64,000 nt of DNA from Nitrospirota bacterium (GTDB taxonomy: Bacteria; Nitrospirota; Thermodesulfovibrionia; UBA6902), in NCBI GenBank assembly GCA_016234115.1, contig JACRHD010000060.1:41135-105134 (forward strand), read 5' to 3'. The position numbers were made by a program, and so were the translations under genes. The notes under the pieces are model-generated. The model was given only the letters and a program-made list of their open reading frames with translations. It was not told where the DNA came from and ran no database searches. Positions 21,688-36,402 of the stretch are shown here, piece by piece (the first letter of the stretch is position 1; the number at the start of each line of letters is the position of its first letter).

Positions 21688-23208
21688 CTAAAATTGGAAA
21701 TAAATAAATTGCTGCCCGACATCGGAAGCAAAAAAGATCATTATTAAAACAGAGCCGTAATATATCGACCAGCGAACAATAAGCGGTTTTGTCAAAAAAG
21801 CTTTTTCAATATCCGCCCTGCTCTGCGCGAAATGTATAAGCTCCAGCAGACCGATCAGGAACAGGCAGAAGATAAATTCCGAATCCGAAATTCCGAGGCC
21901 TTTGCCGAATATCGCGGCCCGAATGTTTGCCTTCATTACAATCAGCTCGTATATCGTCACGAATGTGCCGGTTATGCCGTGTGATAAAATGTAAACCGCG
22001 TCTGAAAGGCTGTTCGCCCTGAAAAAAATCCAGCCCGCGCAGACTATGCAGAACATGATGAACATGTTTACTGCGTTTCCGAAGGGGTTGTTTTCCACTA
22101 CGAGGTTTCTGATAACGGGGTTTTTGATACTGCGTGAATGCGCATTCGCATATTCCCTGATTTTATTATAGCCAATTATTACCATTCCCCAGTATACGCC
22201 GAAAACCACAAAAGTCCAGTTCGCGCCGTGCCACAGGCCGATCAGGGTCATTGCATAAAAATGCGCCTTATATTTGTTGAACATGCCGCCGGCCTTTCTC
22301 ATGTAATGCATTGCCATAGGAAAATAGAGGTAATCCTGAAACCATCTTGATAAACTGATATGCCACCTCTGCCAGAACTCCACGGGATTTTTTGAGTAAT
22401 AAGGCAAATTAAAATTCATTGTTATGTTGAATCCGATCGTTCTCGCCACTCCCCTGGCTATATCGGAATAACCTGAAAAATCACAGTAGATCTGGACCGC
22501 AAAAAAGAAGGTCGCGATGACCAGGGGGACCCCGGTATAATCGTGCGCGTTGTTGAACACCGTGTCCACAAGCACGGCGACCCTGTCGGCGATTATGACC
22601 TTTTTAAACATACCCCAGGCCGAAAGCCTTAAACCTGAAGCCACCGAATTGTATTCAAAAGTCCTTTTCTTCTTTATCTGCGGAAGCAGGTTTGTGGCCC
22701 TCTCGATGGGTCCGGCCACCAACTGGGGGAAGAACGCGACATAAAGCGCATAGTCGAGAAAATTCTTTTCCGGCTTCAGTTTCTTCCTGTAGATATCAAT
22801 GTAATAACTCATCGACTGAAAGGTATAGAAAGAGATGCCGATCGGCAAAATTATCTTAAGCGTCGATATGTTTTCCCTGAGCCCCAGCATGGACAGCAGG
22901 GCAGAAGCTTCAGCAATGAAAAAGCCGGCGTATTTAAAAAAGCCCAGCATGCCGAGACTCGCAAACAGACCTAACAGTAAAAAACGCTTTTTCCGTTTTT
23001 CATCCGCGCTTTCATCAATGAAAATTCCGCAATAATAATCAATAACGGTGCTGATGATCAACAGAGAAAGAAATTTCCAGTTCCAGCTTCCGTAAAAAAA
23101 ATAGCTCCCGGCAAGAAGAAACCTGTTCTGCAGCTTATGGGGTAGAACCCAGTATATGGCAAAGAAAAAACCGAAAAAGACCAGGAATTCCGTGCTATTG
23201 AACAGCAT
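21688..23208 (-). CDS. MBOAT-family membrane O-acyltransferase (DltB/AlgI-like)
   Basis: 506 aa and polytopic. It starts 'MLFNSTEFLVFF' as MBOATs do and carries the conserved His region (WHISLS..F). Its start overlaps the E2 stop by 1 nt. Confidence 0.85.
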   Translation of the reverse strand: MLFNSTEFLVFFGFFFAIYWVLPHKLQNRFLLAGSYFFYGSWNWKFLSLLIISTVIDYYCGIFIDESADEKRKKRFLLLGLFASLGMLGFFKYAGFFIAEASALLSMLGLRENISTLKIILPIGISFYTFQSMSYYIDIYRKKLKPEKNFLDYALYVAFFPQLVAGPIERATNLLPQIKKKRTFEYNSVASGLRLSAWGMFKKVIIADRVAVLVDTVFNNAHDYTGVPLVIATFFFAVQIYCDFSGYSDIARGVARTIGFNITMNFNLPYYSKNPVEFWQRWHISLSRWFQDYLYFPMAMHYMRKAGGMFNKYKAHFYAMTLIGLWHGANWTFVVFGVYWGMVIIGYNKIREYANAHSRSIKNPVIRNLVVENNPFGNAVNMFIMFCIVCAGWIFFRANSLSDAVYILSHGITGTFVTIYELIVMKANIRAAIFGKGLGISDSEFIFCLFLIGLLELIHFAQSRADIEKAFLTKPLIVRWSIYYGSVLIMIFFASDVGQQFIYFQF

Positions 23209-24290
23209 TATTTTCCCTGAAGCATGGTTGACAGCTCATTAAGCATGTCCGCAGCCATCATGCCATCCGCCATTTGATGATCAAAAGTCAGTATGCATTT
23301 AAAGCAGCCCGTCCCCGGCATTACCGCACAGACGCCGAGGATCGCGGATTGCATATTGTTTATTACAGGTATGAAATCAACGACTCCCCTCGACGAAATG
23401 TCCGTCACGGTAAAAGTCCCCCCAGCAAGATCATTCAATGCAAGTTCTTCCCTGAAATACCTGAGGCTGAGATCTTTTACCGTATTCGAGATGTCCTTCA
23501 CCGACATCTTATCGGCATTCCTGATCACCGGCACCTTCAGCCCCCTGCCCATATTTACGGCAAAACCGACATTGATCTCGCTGTAGACCGCGCAGACGTC
23601 TTTATCATAATAGCCGTTGAAGAGATTGTATTTCTTCAACAAACGGGACACGTTGTATATTATCAGCTCGCCGACGGCGGCCCGTACGCCTTCATTCTGA
23701 GAAATACTCCTGATATTCGCCTCAACCTTTTGAAAATCAATCATGACGCTCACACTGCTCGCTATTACCCGCCGGCTGCTTTCACGAAGTTGTCTTATCT
23801 CATATTTCTTTGCCGGACTTATTTCGACAATGTTTAAAGAAGGACAATTTTTGTCCCTGACGCCGGTCACGCTTTGAGGGCCTTTGGTTTGCAGGCCTTT
23901 TTCCGCGACCTTGGCCTTCACATCCTCGAGTTTGACTCTTACCATGCCCGCAAAGTCTTCATCCCGCAATCCATGTTCCTTCATTAATTTTGCGGCCTTG
24001 GCGGAAATGTCCAGCTTACCGTCGCGCGCCCTGCTCCCGTCGTTCACCCCGGCATCCGTCCTGATTTCGGGCATCCTGTTCTCTTTGCAAATATAAGCAA
24101 TTTCACTTCCGACCCTGACCTCATCCCCTTCCTTCACTTTATAGAAAAAGAAGCCGCTCTCTTCAGCTTCAATTTCAAATACCGCCTTCATGGTCTCCAG
24201 TGTTATTATGACTTCTCCCTTTTTGACCTCTTCCCCCGACGCAATATTCATCCTGACTATGGTTGCCACCTCGTCGTTGGTATTTTCCAT
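23208..24290 (-). CDS. dihydrolipoamide acyltransferase (E2 component of a 2-oxoacid dehydrogenase complex)
   Basis: Lipoyl domain (...LETMKA...), a peripheral-subunit-binding segment, and a catalytic domain ending in 'DHQMADG'. The start is uncertain: a TTG at 24344 would extend the ORF. Confidence 0.8.
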   Translation of the reverse strand: MENTNDEVATIVRMNIASGEEVKKGEVIITLETMKAVFEIEAEESGFFFYKVKEGDEVRVGSEIAYICKENRMPEIRTDAGVNDGSRARDGKLDISAKAAKLMKEHGLRDEDFAGMVRVKLEDVKAKVAEKGLQTKGPQSVTGVRDKNCPSLNIVEISPAKKYEIRQLRESSRRVIASSVSVMIDFQKVEANIRSISQNEGVRAAVGELIIYNVSRLLKKYNLFNGYYDKDVCAVYSEINVGFAVNMGRGLKVPVIRNADKMSVKDISNTVKDLSLRYFREELALNDLAGGTFTVTDISSRGVVDFIPVINNMQSAILGVCAVMPGTGCFKCILTFDHQMADGMMAADMLNELSTMLQGK

Positions 24291-24312
24291 TGGAACAATT
24301 ACGGCAAAACAC

Positions 24313-26277
24313 TCAGACACTGAATATCTCCTTGCAGCAATCAATAATGGTCTCCTTCGACGGCAGACATTCTTTTTCCATAGGGCCGGAACATGGAATC
24401 GGGATTTCCCCCGGGGAGACGCGACGGCTTATAAACGCCCCGGCGTCATCCCATTCTTCATTTATCCTGGCAATGACTTCAGCGCCTAAATTGAAGAACG
24501 AGGTCCCCTCTTCAACAACAATCAACTTGCGGGTCTTCTTTACTGAATCAAATACGGCCGAGATGTTCAACGGGCTCACGCTCAACGGGAATATGAGCTC
24601 AACAAGAATTTCTTCATCCCTGTACAATACTTCAGCGGCCTCTTCGGCAAGCAGCGCCATCCTGCCGAAAGCACAAATCGTAACGTCCGGCTCTCCATCG
24701 GATTTTACAACCGTTGTCGGATATGCCTCATCCGTCTCATAGACCTCAAATTCGTCTGTCGCCTCTCTGTCCCCTTTCACCGCGTATAACACCTTGTTTT
24801 CTATTATGACGGACGGATCTTTTATATTTTTAAACAACTCTGAATAAAACCGCGCTATATCTACCCGATGGTGCAGGATGTAGATATTAAGTCCCGGAAC
24901 GCCTACAATATGTTTCTCAAGGCTTTGGCTGTGAGTCGGCCCATACCCTCGCCCCGCGCCCATGGGGGTCCTGACGATCAGCGGGACAGACACCTGATCG
25001 TTATACATATGCCTGAATTTCGCGGCGTGATTGACAAGCTGATCAAAAGAGAGGGTAATAAAATCACCGAACATTATTTCTATAACCGGCTTATATCCGG
25101 CCAGGGCCAATCCGTTTCCGATGCCGACTATCCCGGCCTCGCTGATCGGCGTGTTCAGGACCCTCCCGGGAAAATCATCGGATAGTCCCTTCGTGACCTT
25201 GAACGCTCCGCCGTACGGCATCCTGATGTCTTCACCGAGAAGAATAATGCGACTGTCCTCCTTCAACCCGTCCGATAAAGCCTTATTGATGGCCTTCAGT
25301 TGAGTGTCGCCGCTTTTTGCCGCCCTTTTCAGAGAGGACAAATCAGGGAACGCCGTTCTTGCCGCATTTAGTCCGGCAAACTCCGACTGCTCCGCTTTTT
25401 CGACCGCATTTTTTATCCTGTCTGCGGCCTGACGGAGTTTCTCCTTTATTGCTTCATCATCTTTGTATTCATTTAAAAAAATATTTAACGGGTCTTTTTC
25501 TTCGTAATCCCTGATCTCGTTTATGTCTCTGTGGTCGTCGCCTTTTGAGTGCGCCCGCAGCCTGTACGTCAAGACCCTGAAAAAGACCGGCTCGCATTCT
25601 TTTCGCACATGGTCCGAGGCCCTTTTCATATCGGCAATAAGCTTCTCATATTCCCAGGTATTGCCTTCAAAGACCTTTATCCCGAAAGCCGACGCCCTGC
25701 CGGCGATTGAACCGGAAAGGGTCTCATGTTGTGATGTGGACTGGGAATAGCCGTTATCTTCCAGAACAATCAGCAAAGGGAGCGCCCATTTTGAGGCCAT
25801 GTTCATGGTTTCATACACTACACCTTGCCCCAGGGTCCCGTCTCCGATGCAAACTACGGTGATTGTGTCTTTTCCATCGAGCTTCTGTCCCAGCGCCATC
25901 CCCGCCGCAACAGGCGCTATCCCCCCCTGCACCCCGTTTGAAAAGAAGTTCCGTCCGCATAAATGCTGGCTGCCGCCTATCCCCCCGCAAATGCCGTTCG
26001 ACTTGCCCATAATCTCAGCCAACAGCCCTTCGATATCATTCGTCTTTGCGATATAATGCCCGTGACATCTGTGGTTTGAGAAAATCACGTCTTCATCATT
26101 TAACGCATTTGCAACGGCAAGCGCGGAAAACTCCTGCCCTACGCAGGTGTGGGTCGTTCCAAAGAGTTTCCCTTTGCGGTAGAGATCCAAAAGGGTCTCC
26201 TCCGTACATCTTATCGTATAGGCCTTTAAAAGAAAATCGTTCAAATCTTCCATGCGCTCGTTACATTCTCTGTTCAA
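24313..26277 (-). CDS. TPP-dependent 2-oxoacid dehydrogenase E1 component, fused alpha+beta subunits
   Basis: The N-terminal half is E1-alpha ('CIGDGTLGQG...LLIVLEDNGYSQST', the TPP GDG...N motif). The C-terminal half is E1-beta ('MPYGGAFKVTKGL...TPISEAGIVGIGNGLALAGYKP'). 654 aa. Confidence 0.8.
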   Translation of the reverse strand: MNRECNERMEDLNDFLLKAYTIRCTEETLLDLYRKGKLFGTTHTCVGQEFSALAVANALNDEDVIFSNHRCHGHYIAKTNDIEGLLAEIMGKSNGICGGIGGSQHLCGRNFFSNGVQGGIAPVAAGMALGQKLDGKDTITVVCIGDGTLGQGVVYETMNMASKWALPLLIVLEDNGYSQSTSQHETLSGSIAGRASAFGIKVFEGNTWEYEKLIADMKRASDHVRKECEPVFFRVLTYRLRAHSKGDDHRDINEIRDYEEKDPLNIFLNEYKDDEAIKEKLRQAADRIKNAVEKAEQSEFAGLNAARTAFPDLSSLKRAAKSGDTQLKAINKALSDGLKEDSRIILLGEDIRMPYGGAFKVTKGLSDDFPGRVLNTPISEAGIVGIGNGLALAGYKPVIEIMFGDFITLSFDQLVNHAAKFRHMYNDQVSVPLIVRTPMGAGRGYGPTHSQSLEKHIVGVPGLNIYILHHRVDIARFYSELFKNIKDPSVIIENKVLYAVKGDREATDEFEVYETDEAYPTTVVKSDGEPDVTICAFGRMALLAEEAAEVLYRDEEILVELIFPLSVSPLNISAVFDSVKKTRKLIVVEEGTSFFNLGAEVIARINEEWDDAGAFISRRVSPGEIPIPCSGPMEKECLPSKETIIDCCKEIFSV

Positions 26278-26482
26278 TTATGGAAATAATTCTGCCGATA
26301 CTGTTCATTTCCGTCGCATCAGAGCCGTCAAACCTTAAATTAAATTCCCTCTCCAGTGCCACGAGGAACTCAATATGCTTCATTGAATCCCATTTGCTCT
26401 CCGTCTCTCTGCTTAATTCACTGTTGAAAGCTATCGCTCCTTTAAAGACGTCCTCGAAAACTCTCCTGATCCGCTCTTGCAC
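26261..26482 (-). CDS. acyl/peptidyl carrier protein (ACP-like)
   Basis: 73 aa with 'DSMKHIEFLVALEREF'; the Ser in this DS(L/M) motif would carry the phosphopantetheine. Its stop overlaps the E1 start by 17 nt. Confidence 0.65.
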   Translation of the reverse strand: MQERIRRVFEDVFKGAIAFNSELSRETESKWDSMKHIEFLVALEREFNLRFDGSDATEMNSIGRIISIIEQRM

Positions 26483-26731
26483 CTGTCATTTACTCCCGGT
26501 CCATTGTGTTATGATGGATATTGAATAATTAATGAAGTTCCCGCGATTATCCATCGCGGTTAAAACGTAGAAATTGCTCCGGCCATTTATTAATTTTAAC
26601 AATAACATCGGGCCAACTGCAAATATCACTTCAGTGTTTCAGAGGCATGACCGCAAGTCCTTCGGCTACTTGAGTCCAAATGCTGTTTTCAGGATGACGG
26701 CAAATACTTATGGCAATAAAACGGGCGTCTC

Positions 26732-28216
26732 TCATACATGCCTGTTTATAATCTCATGGGCAAATGCCATGATAGTCCCCTGTGGGTTCTTTCCGATGCT
26801 GGAAGGCAGCACGCTCGCATCCGTCACTAATATATTGTCCATTTTCCACAGCTTACCGTCGGGATTTACTGCAGACACGGCAGGATCGGTTCCCATAGGA
26901 CATGAAGCCATGATATGGACGGTAACAATCTCGAGATTTTCAGGTCTGACCCGGTCAAGGGTCTGTTCCAGCTCGGGAAGCGATCTGATCTTTCCGGCCC
27001 CGGTGACCGGCATATAGAGCTCAATCGCCCCGGCCTGAAACAGCAGCTTGGCCGTTCTCCTCAGGGCCAGCTTGATCATTGACAGGTCATCAGGATCAAA
27101 CCTGTATGTTACCAACGGCTGATCTCCAAACCGGCTTGAAATATGCGCGACGCTTTTGGGCCGGATCATGGCCGTAAAAATCCCCAGATTTTCATAATTG
27201 CTCAATACCGAATTGATTTCTTCATTAGTATGCTGAGACAGTGTCATGGCTACATAGTGACGTTTAATATTTGAAGCCATAATCAAAAGACCTTCACGGT
27301 CAAACTCCTGCATCTGCACCGTGAACATCGTGCCCTGCTCCGCGTTGAGTCTGTCTTTAAAGCGGGCGACGACTTTAAGGTTCATATGGAACTGAAGATT
27401 ACGACCGGCCAGGCCCGAAATTCCGCTGCGGCGCAGCAAATGGGGGGTCTGGACGGCGCCGCCTGCCACCACCAGGTGATCAAACGATATTTCGATGCGT
27501 TTTGGTCCTCCGCCCATGACACGTACTATAATTTTTCTCGCCTTCCCGCCGGAATGGATAATCCGGACGGCGCGACATCGTGAAAAAATACGGGCGCCGT
27601 TATTCAAGGCCCTCGGAAGGTATGTCACAAGGGCGCTCTGTTTGGCGCCTGATATGCACCCGGTCGGACACGAGTTGCCGTTCTTGCAATCATTGACCGC
27701 TCGCGTGGCCATATCGCATTTCCAGCCCAACTCTTCCGAAGCCTTCAGAAGTTTCATTGAATCGAGATTTCCATTTTCCTCAATTTCATGTCTTACTACA
27801 TGCAGGTCCCTTTCAACCGTCTCGAAATACTTCTTCAGTTCATTCAGACCATACCCTTTTAAACCATAATCATTCTGCCACTCGTCAAGGACCCAGGAAG
27901 GAGTATGACAAATCAGGGCGCCGTTTATAACGGTGCCGCCGCCGACACAACAACCTTCGGCGAGCGCGATGGATGGTTTGCCGAGAAGAGGGAATACTCC
28001 CCGGTTTCTATAAAGTTGCGCCGTCATTGCGCTGATATCGGAGGTGTAGGATTCAGTCGGAAAATATCCGCCTTCTTCCAGGAAAATGACGTCCCGTCCC
28101 CTCTCGGCAAGCAATGCCCCCGCCACGCTTCCCCCTGCGCCGGTCCCGACTATCAGATACTGACAGCGGTAAGCCTTTTCAGTATAGTCTTGTCTGTCCA
28201 GAATCGAGTCTTTCAC
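26732..28216 (-). CDS. GMC-family FAD oxidoreductase (choline/alcohol dehydrogenase-like)
   Basis: Has the N-terminal 'YLIVGTGAGGSVAGALLAE' FAD fold and a C-terminal GMC domain. Confidence 0.8.
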   Translation of the reverse strand: MKDSILDRQDYTEKAYRCQYLIVGTGAGGSVAGALLAERGRDVIFLEEGGYFPTESYTSDISAMTAQLYRNRGVFPLLGKPSIALAEGCCVGGGTVINGALICHTPSWVLDEWQNDYGLKGYGLNELKKYFETVERDLHVVRHEIEENGNLDSMKLLKASEELGWKCDMATRAVNDCKNGNSCPTGCISGAKQSALVTYLPRALNNGARIFSRCRAVRIIHSGGKARKIIVRVMGGGPKRIEISFDHLVVAGGAVQTPHLLRRSGISGLAGRNLQFHMNLKVVARFKDRLNAEQGTMFTVQMQEFDREGLLIMASNIKRHYVAMTLSQHTNEEINSVLSNYENLGIFTAMIRPKSVAHISSRFGDQPLVTYRFDPDDLSMIKLALRRTAKLLFQAGAIELYMPVTGAGKIRSLPELEQTLDRVRPENLEIVTVHIMASCPMGTDPAVSAVNPDGKLWKMDNILVTDASVLPSSIGKNPQGTIMAFAHEIINRHV

Positions 28217-28256
28217 GGTAACTGTTATGGTCCTCTCAATATCGATACACTATATT

Positions 28257-28613
28257 TTAATGGTCCGGCGATAAGGGAAGGCTGTCAAACAGTTTCAAAA
28301 AAGCCATGGAGCGGACTAACTTGTTTAACATGCCGAAAGCAGGAATGAACCGGACGCTTCGCAGAAAGGAAGAGCGTTTTTCAGCCGGCAACAGGTTTAA
28401 TTTGCGTCCCGTAGTAATCAGACAGAGCAGGCCGGTTACAATGGCGAGAATTCTGACGGGTAAATGAAAATACCAGGGAAGGTTTGTTACTACATCGGAG
28501 ACGAACTGAAAGACGCCCTCCGCCGTATTGGAATTCCTTTTCTGCATGATTTGATACTGCCTCAAGGATTCTATGTTTTCCAGGACCATGCCTGCCAGCA
28601 CACTCTTCCACAT
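28257..28613 (-). CDS. hypothetical protein (possibly single TM)
   Basis: ORF-only call in the 435-nt gap between the GMC and aminotransferase genes. No motif recognised. Confidence 0.2.
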   Translation of the reverse strand: MWKSVLAGMVLENIESLRQYQIMQKRNSNTAEGVFQFVSDVVTNLPWYFHLPVRILAIVTGLLCLITTGRKLNLLPAEKRSSFLRSVRFIPAFGMLNKLVRSMAFLKLFDSLPLSPDH

Positions 28614-28652
28614 AAGCTTACCTGTTTGACCTGCGGTCTTAAACTGAATTGA

Positions 28653-30086
28653 TTATTTCTTTAAAACTTTTTGTTTGAGAAAATTCAAAATTAAAGTAAG
28701 CTTGCCGATTGCCAATGTCCTGTCCAGGGCATCGAGAAACGTATCCAATTCTTCATCAGATACAATTAAAGAAGGCGAGATGATAAGAGATATTTCTCTA
28801 TTATCACCAAAGAACGTTAAAACATTATGCGCGCTGAAAAGTTCCGATATAACGGAACCGGTGATTAATTTGGACAGAAATCGTTCATCCTTAAACACCT
28901 TTGCAGGTATTAAACTGATTAAAGACTTGACAAATGAGTTGATATCTTTATTGAAAATGACCCCATGCAATGCCCCGCTGCCTCTTACGTCATTTATCAA
29001 GTCAGGGTATTTACCCTGAAGCCTCTTTAAACCGTTACTCAAACGCAGGTGAATTCTCTTTGACTTGCCGACGTAATCGTCATCAACAATTATATTGATT
29101 GCTTCTATGGCCGTTATGCATTCTTCGCCGAAACCGCTGAAAGTGGTGCTGTGCAACGTTGCTTCATTCAGATTATCATATGCCTTGCGAAATAAAGGAG
29201 TACGCGTCGTGTAACCGGATATTGAAGACTTGCCGCCTCCAAAGGATTTTGAGAAAGTGACAATGTCCGGGATCGCGCCTTTTCCGATGAAATTGAACAG
29301 CTCACCGGTCTTTGCCCAGCCGGTGTATACCTCGTCAAAGATCAGAATAATCCCCTCGCCGCTGCAAATTCCGCGCAGCTCTTTTAAGAAGTCCGCGGAA
29401 CATTCCCGTAGACTGCTAGCGCTGAAGGGCTCAAGGATTATGGCATAGATATCGGATTTCCCGTTGGGCTTACGAATCTTCGCGACAAGATCTTTAATAC
29501 TTTCAATATTGCCGTACTCAAAACATTCTATATTTGGAATGGTGGGGAAATTATATACCAATTCCGGCGAGCCTGTCAGTCCCGCGGCTCCCAATAATTT
29601 GCCGTGAAAGGATATGTCGGCGTGCAAAATATGTTTTCTGTCCCCGTCATGGTATTTATAAGCAAGCTTGACTGCCCCCTCCACTGCTTCAGCTCCGGAA
29701 TTGCAAAAGAAACTTATATTCAGATCTTCCGGCATCAGCCTGGCTATATTGTGACTTAACCCCGCAATATACGGCGACAGAAAATTCTTGTGGACCTCCA
29801 TCTTCTTCTGTTTCTGAAATTCCACTCGCGCGGCAAGTATCCGCGGATGGTTGTGTCCGTGATTAAGCACTCCTATCCCGCCGGTAAAATCGAGAATCTT
29901 CCGGCCGTCCGATGTGTAAATGTACATCCCCTCGGCATGGCTGGCAACCGCCCTGCCGAAACCGAAAGAACCGATCAATTCGACCTGGCTCTTGTTGAAA
30001 TATTCCCTGTACAGCTCCTGGATCTTTTCAATATCAAATTCCGCGCATTCCTGCCATCTGTATAATTTGCCTGTGGGGGGTTGCAT
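28653..30086 (-). CDS. class-III PLP aminotransferase (omega-aminotransferase family)
   Basis: 'GGIGVLNHGHNHP', 'DEVYTGWAKTG' and 'TFSKSFGGG' match the class-III aminotransferase fold. Confidence 0.8.
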   Translation of the reverse strand: MQPPTGKLYRWQECAEFDIEKIQELYREYFNKSQVELIGSFGFGRAVASHAEGMYIYTSDGRKILDFTGGIGVLNHGHNHPRILAARVEFQKQKKMEVHKNFLSPYIAGLSHNIARLMPEDLNISFFCNSGAEAVEGAVKLAYKYHDGDRKHILHADISFHGKLLGAAGLTGSPELVYNFPTIPNIECFEYGNIESIKDLVAKIRKPNGKSDIYAIILEPFSASSLRECSADFLKELRGICSGEGIILIFDEVYTGWAKTGELFNFIGKGAIPDIVTFSKSFGGGKSSISGYTTRTPLFRKAYDNLNEATLHSTTFSGFGEECITAIEAINIIVDDDYVGKSKRIHLRLSNGLKRLQGKYPDLINDVRGSGALHGVIFNKDINSFVKSLISLIPAKVFKDERFLSKLITGSVISELFSAHNVLTFFGDNREISLIISPSLIVSDEELDTFLDALDRTLAIGKLTLILNFLKQKVLKK

Positions 30087-30276
30087 TATTCCGGTTACCT
30101 CATAATTTTAAAGTTTGTATTATTGTCGGGAGCGCTTCTCCGCCGTGAAACTTCGCAGAGATTTTACTTACTTAATCACCGGCCACCCAACTCGTCAATT
30201 ATTATATATTATTTTTTTTACTAATATCAAAATAAACAATCATAGGGGCAAATATAGTCTTATTGCCGGAGCAGGG

Positions 30277-31626
30277 CTAATCCATTCCTATCTGACCGGA
30301 CAGGGATGATCCCAACGGCACCATAGAAGACTTTATGCCGACTTTTCTGCAGGCCCGGGCCGCTGTCCTGATCGCATTATTACAGCTCCTTTCATCAGGA
30401 TAAATATGGCTCATGTTGACGACATACATATTCTTGACCGGGGTCTCACAATTCGGCACTATGCCGGAATAATTGAGTCCGCATATTGTTGCGGCCGTTT
30501 TCGCGCGAAAGACATAAGTATTTTTTATCCATGACTCATTGAACCGCGGGTTGATCCTGTTTAACGGCGCGATCATCCGATGCAGAATTTCACTGTTTGT
30601 CGCCGAGGCAATATCGGCATCACCGGCAAAGTATCTCGAAAGGTACAAAATATGACTGCCGTTATACTTGTCCGGGGATATAAAATTGGTATGCTCAATA
30701 ATTCCGCCGAAAGGGAACCCGGGGTCGGCAATGTTGAGCCAGTATATATGGCTGAGAGGTCGGTCCATCTCCAGGATGGTGCAAACTGCGCTGCTGTATC
30801 TGATTCGGGACAGTTCATCCGCATATTCAGATGCGGTCTCCCTTAATAATGGAGTTAGATGCGTCGCGGCTATCGTCGCAAGGAAAAGCCCGCCGGTATA
30901 CGGGCCTCTTGTTGTTTCCACCGCGCACAGCGTATTGGCCTTTATCACCAATTTTGTCAGCCGCGCGTTCAATATGATCTTTACCCCCAGGTTTGTCAAA
31001 CTTCTTTCGAGGGTGTCCGTCAATATCTGCAGACTTCCTTCAATATACCCGAGCTGCTCTCCTGTTCCCTTGCGGGAATTCATTCTCTGCTTAAGGCGTC
31101 CTACCATCCAGGCAGCAGGCACTTTGTCCGCATGGGAGCCGAACTTTATTTCAAGCAGCGGCCTCCATATCGAATCAGTAACATTCCTTCCGGTATATCT
31201 GTAAAACCATTCCAGGGCTGAAACGCCTTCCCATTTTCTCCAGTCCGTCAGCTTACCGAGATAAATACTGGTAAGAAGGAACCGTATTTTGTCCGCTGCG
31301 CCCAGAGGAGTGAACCCGAGGAGGTCTTTCAGTCCGTTGAAATCGTAGATTTTATTATTTCGGAATATGCCTACCGTTGTTTTTTTGAAATCAATCCTGT
31401 CACTTAAGTTCAATTCCCTTAATAACCACAACAGTTCCGCGTCATTGGTAAAACAGTGATGGTAGTAATGCTCCAACAGGCTGCCGCCGATCTGAAAAGT
31501 ACTCATTAAACCGCCTAACTGCGGGCCGCCTTCCAGCAAGGTCACTTCCCATCCGTCTTTGGCCGCAAGATAAGCAGAGGAAAGCCCTGTTATTCCTCCT
31601 CCGATAATGGTTATTTTCTTCCGCAT
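30277..31626 (-). CDS. FAD-dependent oxidoreductase (amine oxidase / phytoene desaturase superfamily)
   Basis: 'KKITIIGGGITGLSSAYLAAKDGWEVTLLE' is a Rossmann FAD-binding N-terminus. 449 aa. Confidence 0.7.
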   Translation of the reverse strand: MRKKITIIGGGITGLSSAYLAAKDGWEVTLLEGGPQLGGLMSTFQIGGSLLEHYYHHCFTNDAELLWLLRELNLSDRIDFKKTTVGIFRNNKIYDFNGLKDLLGFTPLGAADKIRFLLTSIYLGKLTDWRKWEGVSALEWFYRYTGRNVTDSIWRPLLEIKFGSHADKVPAAWMVGRLKQRMNSRKGTGEQLGYIEGSLQILTDTLERSLTNLGVKIILNARLTKLVIKANTLCAVETTRGPYTGGLFLATIAATHLTPLLRETASEYADELSRIRYSSAVCTILEMDRPLSHIYWLNIADPGFPFGGIIEHTNFISPDKYNGSHILYLSRYFAGDADIASATNSEILHRMIAPLNRINPRFNESWIKNTYVFRAKTAATICGLNYSGIVPNCETPVKNMYVVNMSHIYPDERSCNNAIRTAARACRKVGIKSSMVPLGSSLSGQIGMD

Positions 31627-31696
31627 CCGCTTTATGATTTTTATGTCCGGCCTGAACTGACGGCATAATCACGCAAAGTGATTATGCCCGTTATAC

Positions 31697-32680
31697 TCAT
31701 AACGGGTTAGACGGCGGCTTTGTCGATAAGCCCAGGTGTTGTTTAATGATCCATCGGGGCCGCTGTTTGACTTCATCATAGATTCTTCCGAGATACTGCC
31801 CTATAATCCCCAAAAAGATCAGTTGAACTCCTCCGAGGAAAAGGATCGTGACGTGGGTTGAAAATCCGGGCTTGAGCCCTATCCCCAAAGATTCGAAAAA
31901 GTCCCTGAAAATATATTGCAGCACAAGTAAAATAATGCCGAGAAAAGACAAAGCTGAAGTCCATAAACCGATATTGGTAGCCATTGACAGTGGAAGAGTT
32001 GAAAAAGATATTATGCCGTCCAGGGCCAGACGGCGCAATCTTTTGAAATCATACTTTGACTCTCCGGCAGTCCTTGCGTGCCTTTCATAGGCGAGGCCTG
32101 TTTGCCTGAACCCGGCCCATGCCCTCAATCCCCGTACAAACCTGTTTCTCTCTGGCATGGTATTTAAGATATCGACTATCTTCCGGTCCATGATACAAAA
32201 GTCACCTGAGTCCAGCGGCAGATCAAAATCTATCATTCTCGACAATAACCGGTAGAACGTCCAGTAGCTGATTTTCTTGAGGATCCCTTCTTTCCGGTGC
32301 TCTCTGACTGCGTACACTATGTCGTAACCATCCAGCCACTTTTTTATAAAACGATGGATTTCTTCCGGCGGGTCCTGCAGGTCAGCGTCAATAACAATGA
32401 CCGCGTCCCCTGTCGCATGAAATATGCCGGCTGAAACCGCCGTCTGATGTCCGAAGTTGCGGGAAAAAGAAAGTGCGGACCATCTCGGGTCATTCGCGTG
32501 CTGGGTGCTCAGCAGCGCCCAGGTGTTGTCATGAGAACCGTCGTCGATGCAAATAATTTCCCAATCAACCCCCCAGCCTTCAGCCGCGTCCGTCATTCTC
32601 CGGAAAAGCTCAGGAAGCACATCCTGTTCATTATAACAGGGGATAACAACAGATATTTTATACTTTTCTCTTCCGTTCAT
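31697..32680 (-). CDS. GT2 polyprenyl-phosphate glycosyltransferase (GtrB/ArnC/DPM1-type, C-terminal 2 TM)
   Basis: 'VVIPCYNE', 'IICIDDGSHDNT', 'DADLQDPPE', and a C-terminal hydrophobic pair of helices. Confidence 0.8.
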   Translation of the reverse strand: MNGREKYKISVVIPCYNEQDVLPELFRRMTDAAEGWGVDWEIICIDDGSHDNTWALLSTQHANDPRWSALSFSRNFGHQTAVSAGIFHATGDAVIVIDADLQDPPEEIHRFIKKWLDGYDIVYAVREHRKEGILKKISYWTFYRLLSRMIDFDLPLDSGDFCIMDRKIVDILNTMPERNRFVRGLRAWAGFRQTGLAYERHARTAGESKYDFKRLRRLALDGIISFSTLPLSMATNIGLWTSALSFLGIILLVLQYIFRDFFESLGIGLKPGFSTHVTILFLGGVQLIFLGIIGQYLGRIYDEVKQRPRWIIKQHLGLSTKPPSNPL

Positions 32681-32717
32681 TCTGAAATCAATCTGTCAAA
32701 CAGACGATGCCGTCATT

Positions 32718-33419
32718 CTACACTTTTTTTCGGGAATAAATCTTGATAGGTGTATCCGGATTTTCATAATGCGAATAAACAACAGAGAAATTCTTTTTTG
32801 TTATAATGCCTTCGTTTTGAGGACCAAAATAAATTATGATACAATCAATAAGTTTGAGTTCGTCGAATTTATTCAACAGAATTTCCAGCATTTCATCCTT
32901 AAACGGCGCATACAGAAAAAATATCAGTGAATTCGTTTTCCGGTCCCTGCTGAAATCAGTTATTAAGTTCGGGAAATCGACATCTCTGACATTTTGATTA
33001 ACAATTTTCATTTTGGCATGAGGCGGTAAATATTTTTTGAGGTTTTGACTGCACAGCTCCGCGAGTTTATTGGATTGCTCAATCCCTATTAACCGGTTGA
33101 AGCCGATGGAGAACGAATAATACAGGGCCCTGCCCGGACCACATCCGATGTCAAAAAAGATTGAATCCTGAAAATCGGTTACTATATTTTTCAGTTGATT
33201 CAGGGACTTGGTAAGGATAAAATACGGGGCGGGCACGTAAGGATCGGAGAGCCTGCTGTCTTCATCACTGATATCCAGTTCCTGAGGCTCAACGACAAAA
33301 AAATATTTAAACCCGGGATGTCTTATCAAAAAAAACAGTTCATAAACGGATCCGATGATTAATGGTTTTAATCCCCAATCATTTTTTGTCTTGATGACCT
33401 GTTTTATTATTGAAATCAA
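32718..33419 (-). CDS. class I SAM-dependent methyltransferase
   Basis: 'FFDIGCGPGRALYY' is motif I. The segment is markedly AT-rich. Confidence 0.6.
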   Translation of the reverse strand: MISIIKQVIKTKNDWGLKPLIIGSVYELFFLIRHPGFKYFFVVEPQELDISDEDSRLSDPYVPAPYFILTKSLNQLKNIVTDFQDSIFFDIGCGPGRALYYSFSIGFNRLIGIEQSNKLAELCSQNLKKYLPPHAKMKIVNQNVRDVDFPNLITDFSRDRKTNSLIFFLYAPFKDEMLEILLNKFDELKLIDCIIIYFGPQNEGIITKKNFSVVYSHYENPDTPIKIYSRKKV

Positions 33420-33568
33420 AGTATGATTGATGATGACAAGAAATCGCTTCTCAAGCTATAGTGAATTATAGCAGAAAAATCCGGACACTTGTCAATATTT
33501 CATTAATTTTCTCAATTAATTGCGATTGTATTTTATAGCTCGGGCTTTGTATAATTACAACATCATTC

Positions 33569-35158
33569 ATGAAACCATATAAGACGTATTTTGAAGATAA
33601 ATATGAAATATGCATATATGGCCTACTGTTCATATCAGCCCTCGCGGCCGCCCTCCTTGCAGTAAAAAATATAAGAATATCTCCTGACTCGATGATATAT
33701 GCGCTGATTTCACAGGAGATACGGTCCGGCAATGGAATAACACTGCCGATAATTTATGATCTGAACGACAATTACGCCTTTATCGACGGGGCGGTCCCGT
33801 ATCTCGCTCAGCCCCCCCTTCTGCCGATGCTTTTCGCCTTATTGGGCGGGGTCACACCGCAAAATTTCCTGGCCGCACAGATAATTAATGTGATCAGTCA
33901 TGTGGCTACTGCGTTTTTCAGTTTTCTCTTAATGAAAAAATTATACGATAATAAGGCCGTTGCCCTGCTGACCGGGATACTCGTCTCCGTTTCCCTTCCT
34001 CTGGTGTCTAATGCCCACTCCATGTTGAGTGAATCGTTATTTGTCGCATTAACGACTGCGGCGTTATATTTTATAGTCTTGACGCGACATTCCGGCGGTC
34101 ATCAGTCAATCCGATATTATTTCATTGCGAGTATCTGCGCCGGCGCCGCTATTTCAACAAGGTTTGCCGGAGTGGCCCTGATACCAGTATTTTTGTGGGA
34201 AGTCTTTGTCCTGGTAAGGAACAAAAGCATAAAGTCAAAAGGCGCGGCCGCCGTCTTATCGGCAATGCTGCCTCTGATTGCCATCGGAGCGCTTTTCATT
34301 CGTAACTACTTTGTGTCGGGCACAATAGTAGGCTGGAACCCATATGCTTCCGAGAGGCCTTATACCGAAGCCCTTACAGGCACTTTGAAGATGCTATTTC
34401 TGCAATTTCAATTAGGAGGACATCTTGTTGCGCCGTTCATGGCGGCATCTGTTTTATTTATTCTGTATATTGTCGCGACTACTGATGGAAGAAAAAAAAT
34501 GACAGAGTGCGTTCATTCAGGACTGGACCTGCTTGTAGTTTTCATGCTGAGCTATACGGCGCTGATTACTCATGCACTGGCCAGGGTGCAGCCGCTTTTT
34601 GAAGTGCGATATATTTCTCCTTTGGCGCCTTTCTTATTTATAATTTGTATTCTTGTCATCGTTGTTTTATGGGACGTGATAAGATTTAAAGGGTTCTCCA
34701 AACTATCATTATTCGGAATGATATTGTCTCTCGGCATAATAATATTCGGTAATCTTTATAAGACGTGCTTGAATGCGGAGCCGTTATTTTCCCGTCAGAC
34801 CGGGCATTACCGGATACTGAATTCCCCTACGTACAACTGGATTAAACAGAATTATGATGAAGACGTCGTCATTACGACCAACAGACCGTTTCATCTCAGC
34901 TTTTTCGGGGGATATCCGACGGTAAGATTATCGCACAGGAGATTTAACAGGAATGATTATCTTCCTGATAACATGGAATCATTTCTGCCGGCCCGAATGT
35001 CCAGATTCGGATCGCGGGTGCTTGTCTTGTTTGAAGAAGTAGATGAGCAGAATGAAGGAAGTTATCTTACGGGACTGTTCAATAAGAGAGAAGGCGACGA
35101 CCGCTTTGTATTAATGCAAAAATTACCTGACGGGGTCATATATAATCTCAAGGAATAA
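33569..35158 (+). CDS. GT-C fold membrane glycosyltransferase (ArnT/PMT-like)
   Basis: 529 aa. The N-terminal polytopic region has many TM helices. A periplasmic C-terminal domain follows. The family call comes from topology and context. Confidence 0.5.
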   Translation: MKPYKTYFEDKYEICIYGLLFISALAAALLAVKNIRISPDSMIYALISQEIRSGNGITLPIIYDLNDNYAFIDGAVPYLAQPPLLPMLFALLGGVTPQNFLAAQIINVISHVATAFFSFLLMKKLYDNKAVALLTGILVSVSLPLVSNAHSMLSESLFVALTTAALYFIVLTRHSGGHQSIRYYFIASICAGAAISTRFAGVALIPVFLWEVFVLVRNKSIKSKGAAAVLSAMLPLIAIGALFIRNYFVSGTIVGWNPYASERPYTEALTGTLKMLFLQFQLGGHLVAPFMAASVLFILYIVATTDGRKKMTECVHSGLDLLVVFMLSYTALITHALARVQPLFEVRYISPLAPFLFIICILVIVVLWDVIRFKGFSKLSLFGMILSLGIIIFGNLYKTCLNAEPLFSRQTGHYRILNSPTYNWIKQNYDEDVVITTNRPFHLSFFGGYPTVRLSHRRFNRNDYLPDNMESFLPARMSRFGSRVLVLFEEVDEQNEGSYLTGLFNKREGDDRFVLMQKLPDGVIYNLKE

Positions 35159-35340: not shown

Positions 35341-36402
35341 ATGAAAGATTTCTACAAAGGCAAAAACATATTATTGACAGGCGCCGCAGGCACTGTAGGA
35401 AGAGAACTCGTAAGACAACTTATCGCTTTTGGGCCTTCCGAGCTCCGTTTGATGGACAACAATGAAACAGAGATGTTCTTTCTTATGGAAGAATACAGAA
35501 ATGACCATGTGTTCTGTTTTCTCGGCGATATAAGAGACAGGGACAAGCTGGAAAAATTGTCAAAGGACGTGGATATAATCATTCACTCCGCGGCCTTCAA
35601 ACATGTTTATCTGTCCGAATATAATCCATTCGACGTAGTGCAGACAAATATAATCGGAGTTGAAAATATTATAAGAGCGGCGACCTCGGGCAATGTGAAA
35701 CTTCTCCTGTTTACAAGCAGCGACAAAGCTGTAAATCCTACTAATGTTATGGGCACCTCCAAACTTATGGGTGAAAGGCTGATAACCGCCGCGTCCGCCG
35801 TGCGAAATAACAGCAATACCATTTTCAGCAGCACCAGGTTCGGCAATGTTCTCGGGTCAAGAGGTTCCGTAGTTCCTTTATTCATGAAACAGATCAGAAA
35901 AGGCGGTCCCGTGACCATTACGGACAAGAGAATGACCAGATTTGTCATGACCATAGAAGAAGCCGCAAGATTGGTGCTGCAATCAGTCCTGATCGCAAAA
36001 GGGGGTGAAGTTTTCATTACAAAAATGCCGGTCGTAAGAATACCCGACCTTGCCGAAGCAATGATAAAGCTGCTTGCGCCAAAGTATGGTTATAAACCTG
36101 CGGACATTAAAACCGTTGAAATCGGGATGAAGGCCGGTGAAAAGTTATATGAGGAGCTGATGAGCGATCAGGAGGTCCCGCGCTCCATGGAATTAAAAGA
36201 TATGTTTGTGGTGACCCCGGCTTTCAAGGCGCTTTTTCAGTCAATAAAACATGAATATCCCGACACCGTTTCCAATAAAATAGAGAGGTCTTATATATCG
36301 GAGAATGAAACACCATTGAATGTATATGAGATTGAAAAATATCTTATTGAAAACAGGGTGATCGAGAAAGTTGAAGAATTTTCCTACGGCAGCAGTGTTT
36401 GA
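35341..36402 (+). CDS. polysaccharide biosynthesis protein CapD/PseB-like (UDP-GlcNAc 4,6-dehydratase-type SDR)
   Basis: 'KNILLTGAAGTVGREL' plus a characteristic CapD/FlaA1 core ('FTSSDKAVNPTNVMGTSKLMGERL'). Confidence 0.75.
   Translation: MKDFYKGKNILLTGAAGTVGRELVRQLIAFGPSELRLMDNNETEMFFLMEEYRNDHVFCFLGDIRDRDKLEKLSKDVDIIIHSAAFKHVYLSEYNPFDVVQTNIIGVENIIRAATSGNVKLLLFTSSDKAVNPTNVMGTSKLMGERLITAASAVRNNSNTIFSSTRFGNVLGSRGSVVPLFMKQIRKGGPVTITDKRMTRFVMTIEEAARLVLQSVLIAKGGEVFITKMPVVRIPDLAEAMIKLLAPKYGYKPADIKTVEIGMKAGEKLYEELMSDQEVPRSMELKDMFVVTPAFKALFQSIKHEYPDTVSNKIERSYISENETPLNVYEIEKYLIENRVIEKVEEFSYGSSV

Follow-up and report, generated by a model that had tools for sequence, protein, structure and literature searches.

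Closest described systems

Several described systems are relevant to the locus analyzed here. In the Arn (PmrHFIJKLM) pathway, which modifies lipid A with L-Ara4N, an ArnC-type GT2 attaches the amino sugar to undecaprenyl phosphate, and a GT-C enzyme then transfers it outside the membrane. Three-component systems (GtrA/GtrB/GtrC, undP-pentofuranose, and mycobacterial DprE1/DprE2) combine a polyprenyl-P-sugar synthase with a flippase and a GT-C, and auxiliary cytoplasmic enzymes that alter the undecaprenyl-P-sugars diversify these systems (PMC11127046). Outside membrane systems, the FAD dehydrogenase GenQ and the class-III aminotransferase GenB1 lead to 6'-amino sugars (PMC4039129). In the literature that we searched, there was no description of a Gtr/Arn-like system with an alcohol-to-aldehyde-to-amine module.

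The stretch analyzed here (64,000 nucleotides of a Nitrospirota contig, hereafter the window) contains an 8.4-kb set of about eight genes (26734-35158; cassette A) that is separable from the neighboring cassette B. We lean toward reading cassette A as a system for extracytoplasmic envelope glycosylation with a tailored, probably amino, sugar on polyprenyl phosphate, and not as a supplier of precursors to cassette B.

Organization of the locus

The minus-strand unit of cassette A begins with a gene for a SAM-methyltransferase-like protein (32718..33419, 233 aa), followed by genes for a GtrB/ArnC-type GT2, a polyisoprenyl-phosphate glycosyltransferase (31697..32680, 327 aa), a PDS/PPOX-like FAD flavoprotein of the PRK07233 family (30277..31626, 449 aa), a class-III (omega-type) PLP aminotransferase (28653..30086, 477 aa), a single-pass membrane protein (28257..28613, 118 aa), and, as the last gene, a GMC-fold FAD dehydrogenase for which a 3Fe-4S site is predicted (26732..28216, 494 aa). 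A GT-C-fold glycosyltransferase gene (33569..35158, 529 aa) lies divergently on the plus strand. Two further GT2 cassettes, with classical amino-sugar or nucleotide-sugar enzymes, are also present in the window.

The ORFs named in an earlier note on this DNA are present at its coordinates and are indeed all on one strand, and profile searches bore out their families (GMC, class-III aminotransferase, amine-oxidase-type FAD, and GT2). Since this is the minus strand, the GT2 gene, described there as following the three enzymes, is actually upstream of them in the direction of transcription; the 118-aa ORF between the aminotransferase and GMC genes had been overlooked. The gaps were said to be short, which holds between the GT2 and flavoprotein genes (70 bp) and on either side of the 118-aa ORF (39 and 40 bp), but not between the flavoprotein and aminotransferase genes (190 bp) or the GMC and ACP genes (249 bp).

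Separation of cassettes A and B

Cassette B, adjacent to and co-oriented with cassette A in this window, consists of genes for an ACP, E1, E2, an MBOAT, and a 381-aa protein (p381) that has no family match in profile searches. Locus L081, the closest relative, is colinear with window 35158-26734 over its positions 3106-11483 (77%), the block ending at the GT-C stop codon. There, an LPG_synthase_TM gene comes after cassette A, and the unit has a GAF/HisKA/HD sensor gene on one side and rimP-nusA-recG on the other, with no ACP, E1, E2, or MBOAT gene beside it and no MBOAT within 10 kb. L088 carries ACP-E1-E2-MBOAT-p381 with 70% nucleotide identity to window 26508-20674 and lacks cassette A; between its CapD and ACP genes lies just one methyltransferase gene and no gene of cassette A. 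The L081 alignment stops at 26734 and the L088 alignment begins at 26508, placing the junction (26509..26733, without a counterpart in either locus) exactly in the GMC-ACP gap. The earlier note had looked to this gap for a terminator or promoter. No terminator-like site was seen on its minus strand, so cotranscription with cassette B is possible; its RNA fold is not unusual (z = -0.31), and it has no Rfam match.

The note had proposed that the GMC enzyme, flavoprotein, and aminotransferase make a 2-oxoacid for E1/E2 or aminate the ACP-borne acyl unit before MBOAT transfer, which we now consider very improbable. Transamination does turn the amino donor into a 2-oxoacid, and the genes are adjacent and on the same strand, with no terminator-like site in the intervening 249 bp. 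However, when cassette-B homologues were sought within 10 kb in 80 loci with GMC homologues, no locus (0/80) contained an ACP, E1, E2, MBOAT, or p381 homologue. Homologues thus occur without the ACP and MBOAT genes, the very outcome that the note had set against its own proposal. Both variants are further contradicted by the separation of the cassettes in L081, where cassette A stands between housekeeping genes, and in L088, and by a cassette junction that falls between the GMC and ACP genes.

One locus, L123, does have an MBOAT within cassette A, inserted after the small ORF and before the GMC gene, so the cassette is not wholly independent of MBOAT-type acylation, and a shared glycan target of that acylation is conceivable. 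This offers some support to the precursor proposal, but the protein is a different MBOAT, a paralogue with 36% identity, accompanied by an unrelated partner gene and by no ACP, E1, or E2. Glycan loci in general often carry MBOAT pairs (e.g., L088 and L107). The L123 pair could also fit independent cassettes that converge on one product, with cassette B acylating the sugar or amine of cassette A outside the membrane. The adjacency and shared orientation seen here are consistent with such convergence, as is the absence, from both the window and L081, of the cytoplasmic GNAT or formyltransferase found in other lineages. Even so, we regard it as improbable, given that no MBOAT lies within 10 kb of the L081 cassette, that cassette B exists without cassette A in L088, and that MBOAT pairs are common in such loci.

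Predicted enzymes of cassette A

The GMC protein matches GMC_oxred_N (157 bits) and GMC_oxred_C (74 bits) in profile searches, and its AF2 model (pLDDT 82.5) finds as top Foldseek matches the large subunit of fructose dehydrogenase (8jej, 9e-28) and the alpha subunit of Burkholderia cepacia FAD-GDH (8grj); the fold is also near that of choline oxidase. C177, C183, and C187 are invariant in the family and form a C-x5-C-x3-C motif, and the likewise invariant H434 is followed 43 residues further by Asn477, at a position occupied by Asn or Ser in the family. In BcGDH, Cys212/218/222 and His476/Asn519 have the same spacings (PMC6719666). From motif spacing and fold, we predict an enzyme with a 3Fe-4S site of the sugar-dehydrogenase kind. 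The 118-aa protein, with one hydrophobic segment (47-69) and no Pfam or NCBIfam match, is kept across phyla; its homologues, with the conserved motifs LPWYFR and P.FG.L.KLVRS.AFL.LFD, lie between the aminotransferase and GMC genes in 15 non-actinobacterial loci, and in at least five Streptomyces-group loci the same slot holds an ORF of about 146 aa with one helix (one locus checked). We propose that it is the small subunit, or membrane anchor, of the GMC dehydrogenase.

The aminotransferase (Aminotran_3, 217 bits) contains the motifs DEV...TG and FSKSFGGG (Lys) and by sequence appears nearest to enzymes of aldehydes and terminal amines: among named families, PigE (237 bits) and putrescine aminotransferase (229 bits) come closest, each scoring under cut-off, and its closest solved structures are YgjG (4uox, 6e-49) and PigE (4ppm). 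In the 190-bp gap, 115 nt 5' of the aminotransferase start, is the sequence TTGATA-N18-TATAAT (30201..30230, minus strand; 11/12 consensus matches). Both hexamers are kept 5' of the gene in L081 and L083, in the latter although no flavoprotein gene precedes it. This looks like a conserved promoter-like element of the aminotransferase's own, which argues further against a role tied to the ACP.

The flavoprotein matches Amino_oxidase (81 bits) and NCBIfam NF005560/PRK07233 (446 bits, cut-off 252), and its AF2 model (pLDDT 89) resembles PDS (5mog, TM 0.81) and PPOX, the top Foldseek matches, at 14-18% identity. Among 10 contexts of homologues outside Actinomycetota, a GT2 gene is adjacent in 9, a PMT/PMT_2 GT-C is nearby in 6, and LPG_synthase_TM in 3; the protein is nearly always a partner of a GtrB/ArnC-type GT2. 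The GT2 itself (Glycos_transf_2, 117 bits) has C-terminal membrane helices at 234-262 and 272-298 and matches over its full length the solved Synechocystis GtrB (5ekp, 1.9e-84) and ArnC (5.7e-56), scoring under the equivalog cut-offs of PgfS (264 versus 500) and ArnC (196 versus 529). It is kept beside the flavoprotein, aminotransferase, and GMC genes in Nitrospirota, Gamma- and Alphaproteobacteria, and some 30 Actinomycetota loci, and the link to polyprenyl-phosphate glycosylation drawn in the earlier note therefore stands.

The GT-C protein is ArnT/PMT_2-like (PMT_2, 36.8 bits, cut-off 26.1; PMT, 26.7 bits), with at least 11 hydrophobic segments by hydropathy, and has counterparts in the same position in L081 (64% identity) and L123 (54%). 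We propose it as the final transferase, acting outside the membrane. The 233-aa protein scores slightly under cut-off for Methyltransf_25 (22.5 bits) and Methyltransf_11 (21.1 bits) and is 73% and 67% identical to its L081 and L123 counterparts; it contains the class-I motif FDIGCGPG and is a putative SAM methyltransferase.

Conservation of the module and its possible substrates

An aminotransferase gene, scored as a neighbor if within 1.5 kb, stands beside the GMC gene in 49 of the 80 surveyed loci (51-86% identity), and 33 of these 49, from four phyla, also contain the adjacent GT2-flavoprotein pair. The pair occurs in three arrangements: it is colinear in the loci of Nitrospirota and Actinomycetota, whereas L007 has it divergent and with a GtrA gene, and L014 has it convergent. 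Streptomyces clusters have no GT-C nearby and instead contain LacI, MFS, and DegT genes. Amine-modifying neighbors, namely a GNAT (8 loci), a formyltransferase (L014), or a NodS-like methyltransferase (L083/L084), indicate that the product is probably an amine; the GNAT or formyltransferase gene comes after the GMC gene. In L005 and L006, an aminotransferase-small ORF-GMC-GNAT module stands alone among housekeeping genes (ATP synthase or glnA), so the module can do without the GT2, and its substrate may be ubiquitous, soluble or lipid. In L010 and L012, a gene near the module encodes a membrane protein that includes a spermine-synthase domain.

These lone modules would suit a soluble, ubiquitous substrate, and tailoring might take place on a nucleotide sugar before the GT2 acts, in an Arn-like manner, for example, with a UDP-6-amino-6-deoxyhexose that is then loaded on polyprenyl phosphate. 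The formyltransferase or GNAT after the GMC gene recalls N-formylation by ArnA before ArnC, the two other GT2 cassettes of the window use nucleotide-sugar enzymes, and every sugar transamination known to us has a soluble substrate. We nevertheless think this order unlikely, while giving it some weight: the conserved single-pass protein that partners the dehydrogenase points to action at the membrane, cassette A in the window and L081 includes neither an N-protecting acyltransferase (GNAT or formyltransferase) nor a dedicated nucleotide-sugar gene, and modification after loading has precedent (PMC11127046).

Alternatively, the substrate of the aminotransferase-small ORF-GMC module may be an alcohol or amine other than a sugar, such as an amino alcohol, polyamine, or lipid head group, with adjacency to the GT2 due to the clustering of envelope loci only. 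The closest characterized aminotransferases, putrescine aminotransferase and PigE, would agree with this, as would the proximity of the GMC fold to choline oxidase, the lone GNAT modules beside ATP synthase or glnA genes, and the spermine-synthase-domain neighbor. It seems decidedly doubtful, however, because the module accompanies the GT2-flavoprotein pair across four phyla, in three arrangements, lies inside glycan loci in L083, L122, L003, and L014, and has formyltransferase and NodS-like partners typical of sugar amines, and because the best fold matches of the GMC enzyme are sugar dehydrogenases.

Proposed pathway

Under our preferred reading, tailoring of a lipid-linked sugar for the envelope, the GT2 would use a nucleotide sugar to charge polyprenyl phosphate with a common sugar at the cytoplasmic face. 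The GMC FAD/3Fe-4S dehydrogenase, anchored by the 118-aa protein, would then oxidize a hydroxymethyl group to the aldehyde, passing electrons to the membrane and not to O2, and the omega-aminotransferase would turn this product into a primary amine, with C6 of a hexose as the possible site by analogy. The PDS/PPOX-like flavoprotein may add a further redox reaction, acting on either the lipid-linked intermediate or the carrier, and N-methylation of the amine may fall to the methyltransferase-like protein. Once the sugar has been flipped, the divergent GT-C would move it to an envelope acceptor. The flippase-like LPG_synthase_TM gene occurs in relatives and is absent from the window, where tblastn with LPG_synthase_TM and GtrA queries found no recognizable flippase. 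This absence counts against the reading, as do the lone modules of L005 and L006, the Streptomyces clusters with no GT-C found nearby, and the low identity of the flavoprotein's fold matches.

Comparison with known systems

For cassette B alone, the comparable systems are QncN/QncL/QncM, in which E1/E2-type enzymes put a two-carbon unit on a stand-alone ACP (PMC6335953), and Dlt, where an MBOAT likewise sits with a carrier protein; the cassette-B MBOAT is DltB-like, though at 166 bits it stays short of the DltB cut-off of 375 bits, and DltA is absent from cassette B.

The dehydrogenase of cassette A shares with the B. cepacia FAD-GDH gamma-alpha-beta complex and Gluconobacter fructose dehydrogenase a GMC catalytic subunit, the C-x5-C-x3-C motif, the His/Asn spacing, and a small-subunit gene directly upstream, and these membrane-bound FAD sugar dehydrogenases are its top Foldseek matches. 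However, those complexes are periplasmic and include a hitchhiker subunit that bears a Tat signal as well as a multihaem cytochrome c subunit, whereas cassette A lacks a cytochrome gene, its small protein has one helix and no twin-arginine signal, and the dehydrogenase is partnered with an aminotransferase of the cytoplasm. GenQ/GenB1 (Neo11/NeoB-type) parallels the proposed module in its described reaction, CH2OH -> CHO -> CH2NH2, by an FAD dehydrogenase and a class-III aminotransferase (PMC4039129), yet it acts on soluble pseudo-oligosaccharides in antibiotic gene clusters, and a small membrane subunit or FeS motif is not reported there.

Three-component systems are matched by the full-length similarity of the GT2 to GtrB and by the GtrA gene in L007. 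In cassette A, however, the auxiliary enzymes are a dehydrogenase/transaminase and a PDS-like flavoprotein instead of an SDR or the DprE1/E2 epimerases, and the candidate flippase of its relatives, which the window lacks, is LPG_synthase_TM. The Arn pathway obtains its amine through NAD-dependent ArnA and DegT-type ArnB, whereas in cassette A the amino group would come from a class-III aminotransferase and an FAD/FeS GMC enzyme; cassette A has no ArnA, ArnD, or ArnE/F, an additional PDS/PPOX-like flavoprotein, and a GT2 well under the ArnC cut-off. Nonetheless, cassette A resembles Arn in its ArnC-type GT2 and its GT-C, and its sister loci place an N-formyl- or N-acetyltransferase beside the amination genes, as in ArnA.

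Gene organization and cassette boundaries

The genes at window positions 26734 to 35158 (cassette A) are a predicted Gtr/Arn-type lipid-linked glycosylation system, assembled from two uncharacterized but widespread modules. All open reading frames (ORFs) named in the earlier note were confirmed in position, and all are encoded by the minus strand. Read in transcriptional order, the row opens with a methyltransferase (MTase)-like protein (233 aa), followed by a GT2 (31697-32680), a flavoprotein of the Amino_oxidase type (30277-31626, 449 aa), a class-III aminotransferase (28653-30086, 477 aa), a 118-aa protein (28257-28613) that was missing from the first description, and a GMC enzyme with both GMC domains (26732-28216, 494 aa). 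The GT2 thus lies upstream of the three enzymes and not after them as had been proposed, and the short gaps described between genes hold except for those between the flavoprotein and aminotransferase (190 bp) and between the GMC and ACP genes (249 bp). The gene for a GT-C glycosyltransferase (PMT_2/PMT, 529 aa) starts at 33569 in the opposite direction, and the 149-bp divergent region has promoter-like hexamers on both strands.

After the 249-bp gap, the minus-strand row continues as cassette B (20482-26482), comprising ACP, a fused E1 alpha-beta, E2, a DltB-like MBOAT scoring below cut-off, and p381 (381 aa), which matches no family and has a hydrophobic segment at its N terminus. A tRNA-Pro (CGG; 20357-20433, minus strand) directly follows this last gene; inserted islands are commonly bounded by tRNA genes. 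The tRNA is the sole Rfam match at 20-36 kb, and no E. coli genome matched 20.4-33.5 kb in a megablast search. The minus strand of the GMC-ACP gap displays no terminator-like site, its fold is not more stable than that of shuffled sequences (z = -0.31), and it has no Rfam match, so that cassette A and the ACP genes may possibly share one transcript.

Comparison loci from other genomes and metagenomic contigs (L numbers) separate the two cassettes. The closest relative, L081, whose GMC protein is 81% identical, is colinear with window positions 35158-26734 at 77% nucleotide identity, and the aligned span in this DNA comparison has the stop codons of the GT-C and GMC genes as its exact limits. 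A flippase-like LPG_synthase_TM gene follows the cassette in L081, where a GAF/HisKA/HD sensor gene and rimP-nusA-recG flank the unit and ACP, E1, E2, and MBOAT genes are absent from the locus. The metagenomic contig L088, on the other hand, encodes ACP-E1-E2-MBOAT-p381 with 70% nucleotide identity to window positions 26508-20674, as well as the CapD gene (76%) that in the window sits beyond the GT-C gene; between CapD and ACP it harbors only one SAM-methyltransferase gene. As judged from these two alignments, the window is an L088-like backbone in which cassette A (8.4 kb) separates CapD from ACP, with the 249-bp gap as the junction. In L123, a Nitrospirota relative, cassette A borders the same CapD/epimerase genes with the other of its two ends, which indicates that the cassette has moved or been inverted.

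L123 also contains, as an insertion that separates the small ORF from the GMC gene (6813-9967), a 376-aa protein without a family match and an MBOAT. It is therefore possible that MBOAT-type acylation and cassette A share a glycan target, a reading favored by the position of this pair inside the cassette. The L123 MBOAT is a paralogue (36% identical to that of the window), its partner gene is unrelated, and ACP/E1/E2 are absent from the locus. We considered p381 as a protein of the same type as the L123 partner and rejected this, as no BLASTP similarity was found.

Synteny across genomes

Scanning with the GMC alignment, one genome per species, yielded 80 loci. In 49 of them the GMC gene has an aminotransferase orthologue (51-86% identical) no more than 1.5 kb away, and a GT2-flavoprotein pair adjoins in 33 of these 49. 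Homologues of ACP, E1, E2, MBOAT, or p381 occur in none of the 80. The earlier note had proposed that the three enzymes feed the E1/E2/ACP pathway, and had named homologues occurring elsewhere without the ACP/MBOAT genes as a finding that would speak against it. This is the pattern observed across the 80 loci and, with the L081 cassette likewise lacking these genes, the proposal is not supported. The neighboring ACP-E1-E2-MBOAT genes must consequently be interpreted on their own terms. An E1/E2-type loading of ACP is known from QncN/L/M (PMC6335953). Cassette B resembles it and adds a Dlt-like MBOAT. It looks like a system in which E1/E2 load the ACP and the MBOAT exports the acyl group, a gene combination that appears to be undescribed.

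The triad of aminotransferase, small ORF, and GMC enzyme was found in Nitrospirota, Chloroflexota, Myxococcota, Lentisphaerota, Bacteroidota, Omnitrophota, and Elusimicrobiota, in Alpha-, Gamma-, and Deltaproteobacteria (including one Pelagibacteraceae genome), and in approximately 30 Streptomyces, Kitasatospora, Embleya, and Amycolatopsis genomes. The five-gene set of GT2, flavoprotein, and triad is colinear in Nitrospirota and Actinomycetota, divergent and accompanied by a GtrA gene in the gammaproteobacterium L007, and convergent in the alphaproteobacterium L014. These three different arrangements point to functional coupling of the five genes rather than to mere inheritance of a single arrangement. 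In the approximately 30 actinomycete genomes (L018-L052; e.g., L019 2966-11497) the set forms a compact GT2-flavoprotein-aminotransferase-small ORF-GMC cluster, in Streptomyces with overlapping stop and start codons of neighboring genes, for which our literature search found no description. LacI, MFS, and DegT genes often precede it. A more distant GMC clade (L049-L080; 32-37% identical) retains the C-x5-C-x3-C motif and has no adjoining aminotransferase, and so this predicted FeS-bearing GMC subfamily is wider than the alcohol-to-amine module discussed below.

A predicted membrane-tethered dehydrogenase and its aminotransferase

The aminotransferase matches Aminotran_3 (217.5 bits; cut-off, 30.5) and contains the FSKSFGGG motif with the PLP lysine as well as DEV..TG. 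It is nearest to PigE (237.5; cut-off, 850) and putrescine aminotransferase (228.6; cut-off, 612), scoring below both equivalog cut-offs. Both of these enzymes have terminal aldehydes and amines as substrates.

The N- and C-terminal domains of the GMC enzyme exceed their Pfam gathering scores (157.4 against 23 and 73.7 against 24.6), and the FAD-binding motif GTGAGG lies at residues 24-29. Within the family, H434 is invariant, and the position of N477 (in KNPQGT) is occupied by Asn or Ser. C177-x5-C183-x3-C187 is also invariant in the alignment, and the C-x5-C-x3-C motif is present in nearly all ORFs of the family, Streptomyces included. In the FAD-dependent glucose dehydrogenase of B. cepacia (BcGDH), Cys212/218/222 are the 3Fe-4S ligands and His476/Asn519 the catalytic pair (PMC6719666). 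The Cys spacing and the 43-residue His/Asn spacing are identical in the window enzyme, for which such a cluster is predicted. An AF2 model (pLDDT 82.5) is nearest to the large subunit of membrane-bound fructose dehydrogenase (FDH) and the alpha subunit of B. cepacia FAD-glucose dehydrogenase (FAD-GDH), followed by choline oxidase and HMF oxidase.

As in B. cepacia FAD-GDH, where the small-subunit gene is located directly upstream, a small ORF precedes the GMC gene of the window; it encodes one membrane helix. We rejected its assignment as a Tat hitchhiker subunit since the twin-arginine motif is absent. FAD-GDH/FDH complexes combine such a Tat-signal small subunit with a multihaem cytochrome c subunit, whereas here neither is recognizable and cassette A contains no cytochrome c gene. 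Taking together the FeS-type motif, the fold, the helix-bearing small ORF, and the absence of a Tat signal and cytochrome, we read the GMC enzyme as a probable cytoplasm-facing, membrane-tethered dehydrogenase and not an oxidase, which suits an anaerobic host.

The neighbors of the triad at other loci modify amines: GNAT (8 loci), a formyltransferase (1 locus), and a NodS-like N-methyltransferase (L083/L084). This supports a predicted direction of alcohol to aldehyde to amine. The substrate may, however, be a nucleotide sugar or a non-sugar molecule. Aminotransferase-small ORF-GMC-GNAT modules stand alone in a Lentisphaeria MAG (L005 8142-12134), flanked by ATP synthase genes, and in a Chloroflexota MAG (L006 8095-12090), between glnA and trigger factor. 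The triad thus can do without this GT2, and the placement among housekeeping genes suggests that the substrate there is a ubiquitous molecule. The lipid-carrier reading is further weakened by the Streptomyces clusters with their LacI, MFS, and DegT genes, as no GT-C gene was seen within 10 kb of the actinomycete clusters.

A recurring GT2-flavoprotein-GT-C core

With regard to the lipid-linked reading itself, the GT2 matches the solved Synechocystis GtrB 5ekp over its full length (1.9e-84, residues 7-322) and ArnC (5.7e-56), and displays two C-terminal hydrophobic membrane helices (234-298). It thereby passes as a polyisoprenyl-phosphate glycosyltransferase of the GtrB/ArnC/DPMS type, and the link to polyprenyl-phosphate glycosylation drawn in the earlier note is upheld. 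The GT-C protein (PMT_2, 36.8 bits, cut-off 26.1; PMT, 26.7 bits, cut-off 22.7) is a polytopic membrane protein with at least 11 hydrophobic segments. Neither its sequence nor that of p381 has a match in the PDB. A tblastn search of the window with GtrA and LPG_synthase_TM homologues found no flippase, which again weakens the lipid-carrier reading; relatives do have flippase-type genes, namely LPG_synthase_TM (L081, L087, L121) or GtrA (L007).

The flavoprotein belongs to NCBIfam NF005560/PRK07233 (445.8 bits; cut-off, 252), a family named only "hypothetical protein," and is covered entirely by Amino_oxidase in the Pfam alignment. It scores under the equivalog cut-offs for HpnE (72/283), PPOX (47/98), and the CrtI family (25/238). 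Its AF2 model (pLDDT 89) is nearest in fold to plant phytoene desaturase (TM 0.81) and also resembles protoporphyrinogen oxidases, these fold matches having TM 0.72-0.81 at 14-18% identity; both kinds of enzyme have hydrophobic, membrane-associated substrates. Similarity to UDP-galactopyranose mutase was considered and discarded, this enzyme ranking 30th or lower among the fold matches, behind PDS, PPOX, and MAO.

Gene neighborhoods of the flavoprotein were compared at ten loci that do not belong to Actinomycetota (the window, L081, L085, L086, L087, L119, L120, L121, L007, and L014). A GtrB-type GT2 adjoins the flavoprotein in nine, a PMT/PMT_2 GT-C is nearby in six, and LPG_synthase_TM in three, while the tailoring genes differ, one set consisting of B12-radical-SAM enzymes. 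In Bacteroidota, the GT-C, GT2, and flavoprotein genes are accompanied by ACP, two KAS III, PglD_N, and a Rieske oxygenase in L085 (763-9368), and by WbqC and an ATP-grasp enzyme in L120 (1042-8332). These gene sets suggest a recurring GT2-flavoprotein-(flippase-like)-GT-C core, with the triad as a candidate for one among several tailoring modules that can be exchanged. In line with an exchangeable triad, a promoter-like TTGATA-N18-TATAAT element in the 190-bp gap ahead of the aminotransferase gene is conserved in L081. It is likewise kept in L083, whose triad is part of another glycan locus without the flavoprotein gene.

Other glycan genes in the window

Two further GtrB/ArnC-type GT2s are encoded in the window, respectively 26% and 33% identical to that of cassette A. 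The first (within 53678-58380, minus strand) is found with an epimerase, a DegT aminotransferase, and a 523-aa protein without a family match, and the second (within 58803-63963, plus strand) with an NDP-hexose 2,3-dehydratase, a GFO oxidoreductase, a DegT aminotransferase, and a hexapeptide acetyltransferase. Since both are located beside classical amino-sugar enzymes, attachment of an amino sugar to a lipid carrier appears as a recurrent theme in this genome, which brings the number of predicted lipid-carrier amino-sugar cassettes in the window to at least three. The remainder of the large glycan locus (35341-43925, plus strand, and 49027-52381, minus strand) comprises CapD/PseB-like, epimerase, FkbH-like, MaoC dehydratase, GNAT, two B12-binding radical-SAM, and carbamoyltransferase genes.

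Proposed pathway and comparison with known systems

The pathway that we propose, and regard as somewhat more likely than not, is the following. The GT2 would put a common sugar on polyprenyl phosphate, the anchored dehydrogenase would oxidize a hydroxymethyl group, and the aminotransferase would produce the amine. The flavoprotein and the MTase-like protein could add further modifications, and the GT-C enzyme would transfer the sugar outside the membrane. A literature search found no description of this gene combination. If the proposal is true, it would provide a role for two widespread families without described function, the triad and the PRK07233 flavoprotein as partner of a GtrB-type GT2. 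In a more specific version, which we regard as rather unlikely, amination takes place on the lipid-linked sugar, converting polyprenyl-P-hexose to polyprenyl-P-6-amino-6-deoxyhexose by a membrane-tethered FAD/3Fe-4S dehydrogenase, with electrons passing to the membrane, and an omega-transaminase, before GT-C delivers the sugar to the envelope. Amination would then be one element of a modular GT2-flavoprotein-GT-C system of wide distribution whose tailoring sets can be swapped, common to anaerobic Nitrospirota, Proteobacteria, and Streptomyces. It would also represent a previously undescribed, oxygen-independent route to cationic surface modification; cationic sugar modifications confer resistance to polymyxins and host peptides.

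Precedents exist for this logic. The FAD dehydrogenase GenQ and the class-III aminotransferase GenB1 together form 6'-amino sugars (PMC4039129). With this aminoglycoside pair, and with Neo11/NeoB, the window genes would have the reaction logic alone in common, and no 2-deoxystreptamine genes were seen in the gene context of the cassette. In three-component systems, auxiliary enzymes modify undecaprenyl-P-sugars (PMC11127046). Such Gtr-type systems have a dedicated flippase beside the GT2 and GT-C, which tblastn did not find in the window. The same logic underlies the Arn pathway as well as KdnA/KdnB for Kdo8N. Membership in an Arn operon is not indicated, as the GT2 scores 196 against an ArnC equivalog cut-off of 529 and the ArnA, ArnB (DegT type), ArnD, and ArnE/F families are not present within 26.7-35.2 kb. 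In the Arn pathway, ArnA is an NAD-dependent dehydrogenase/decarboxylase and ArnB a DegT-type aminotransferase. If the proposed route is true, a flavin/iron-sulfur dehydrogenase and an omega-transaminase would replace this ArnA and ArnB chemistry, and bacteria would have, besides Arn, a mechanistically distinct way of attaching amino sugars to a lipid carrier with which to decorate the envelope.
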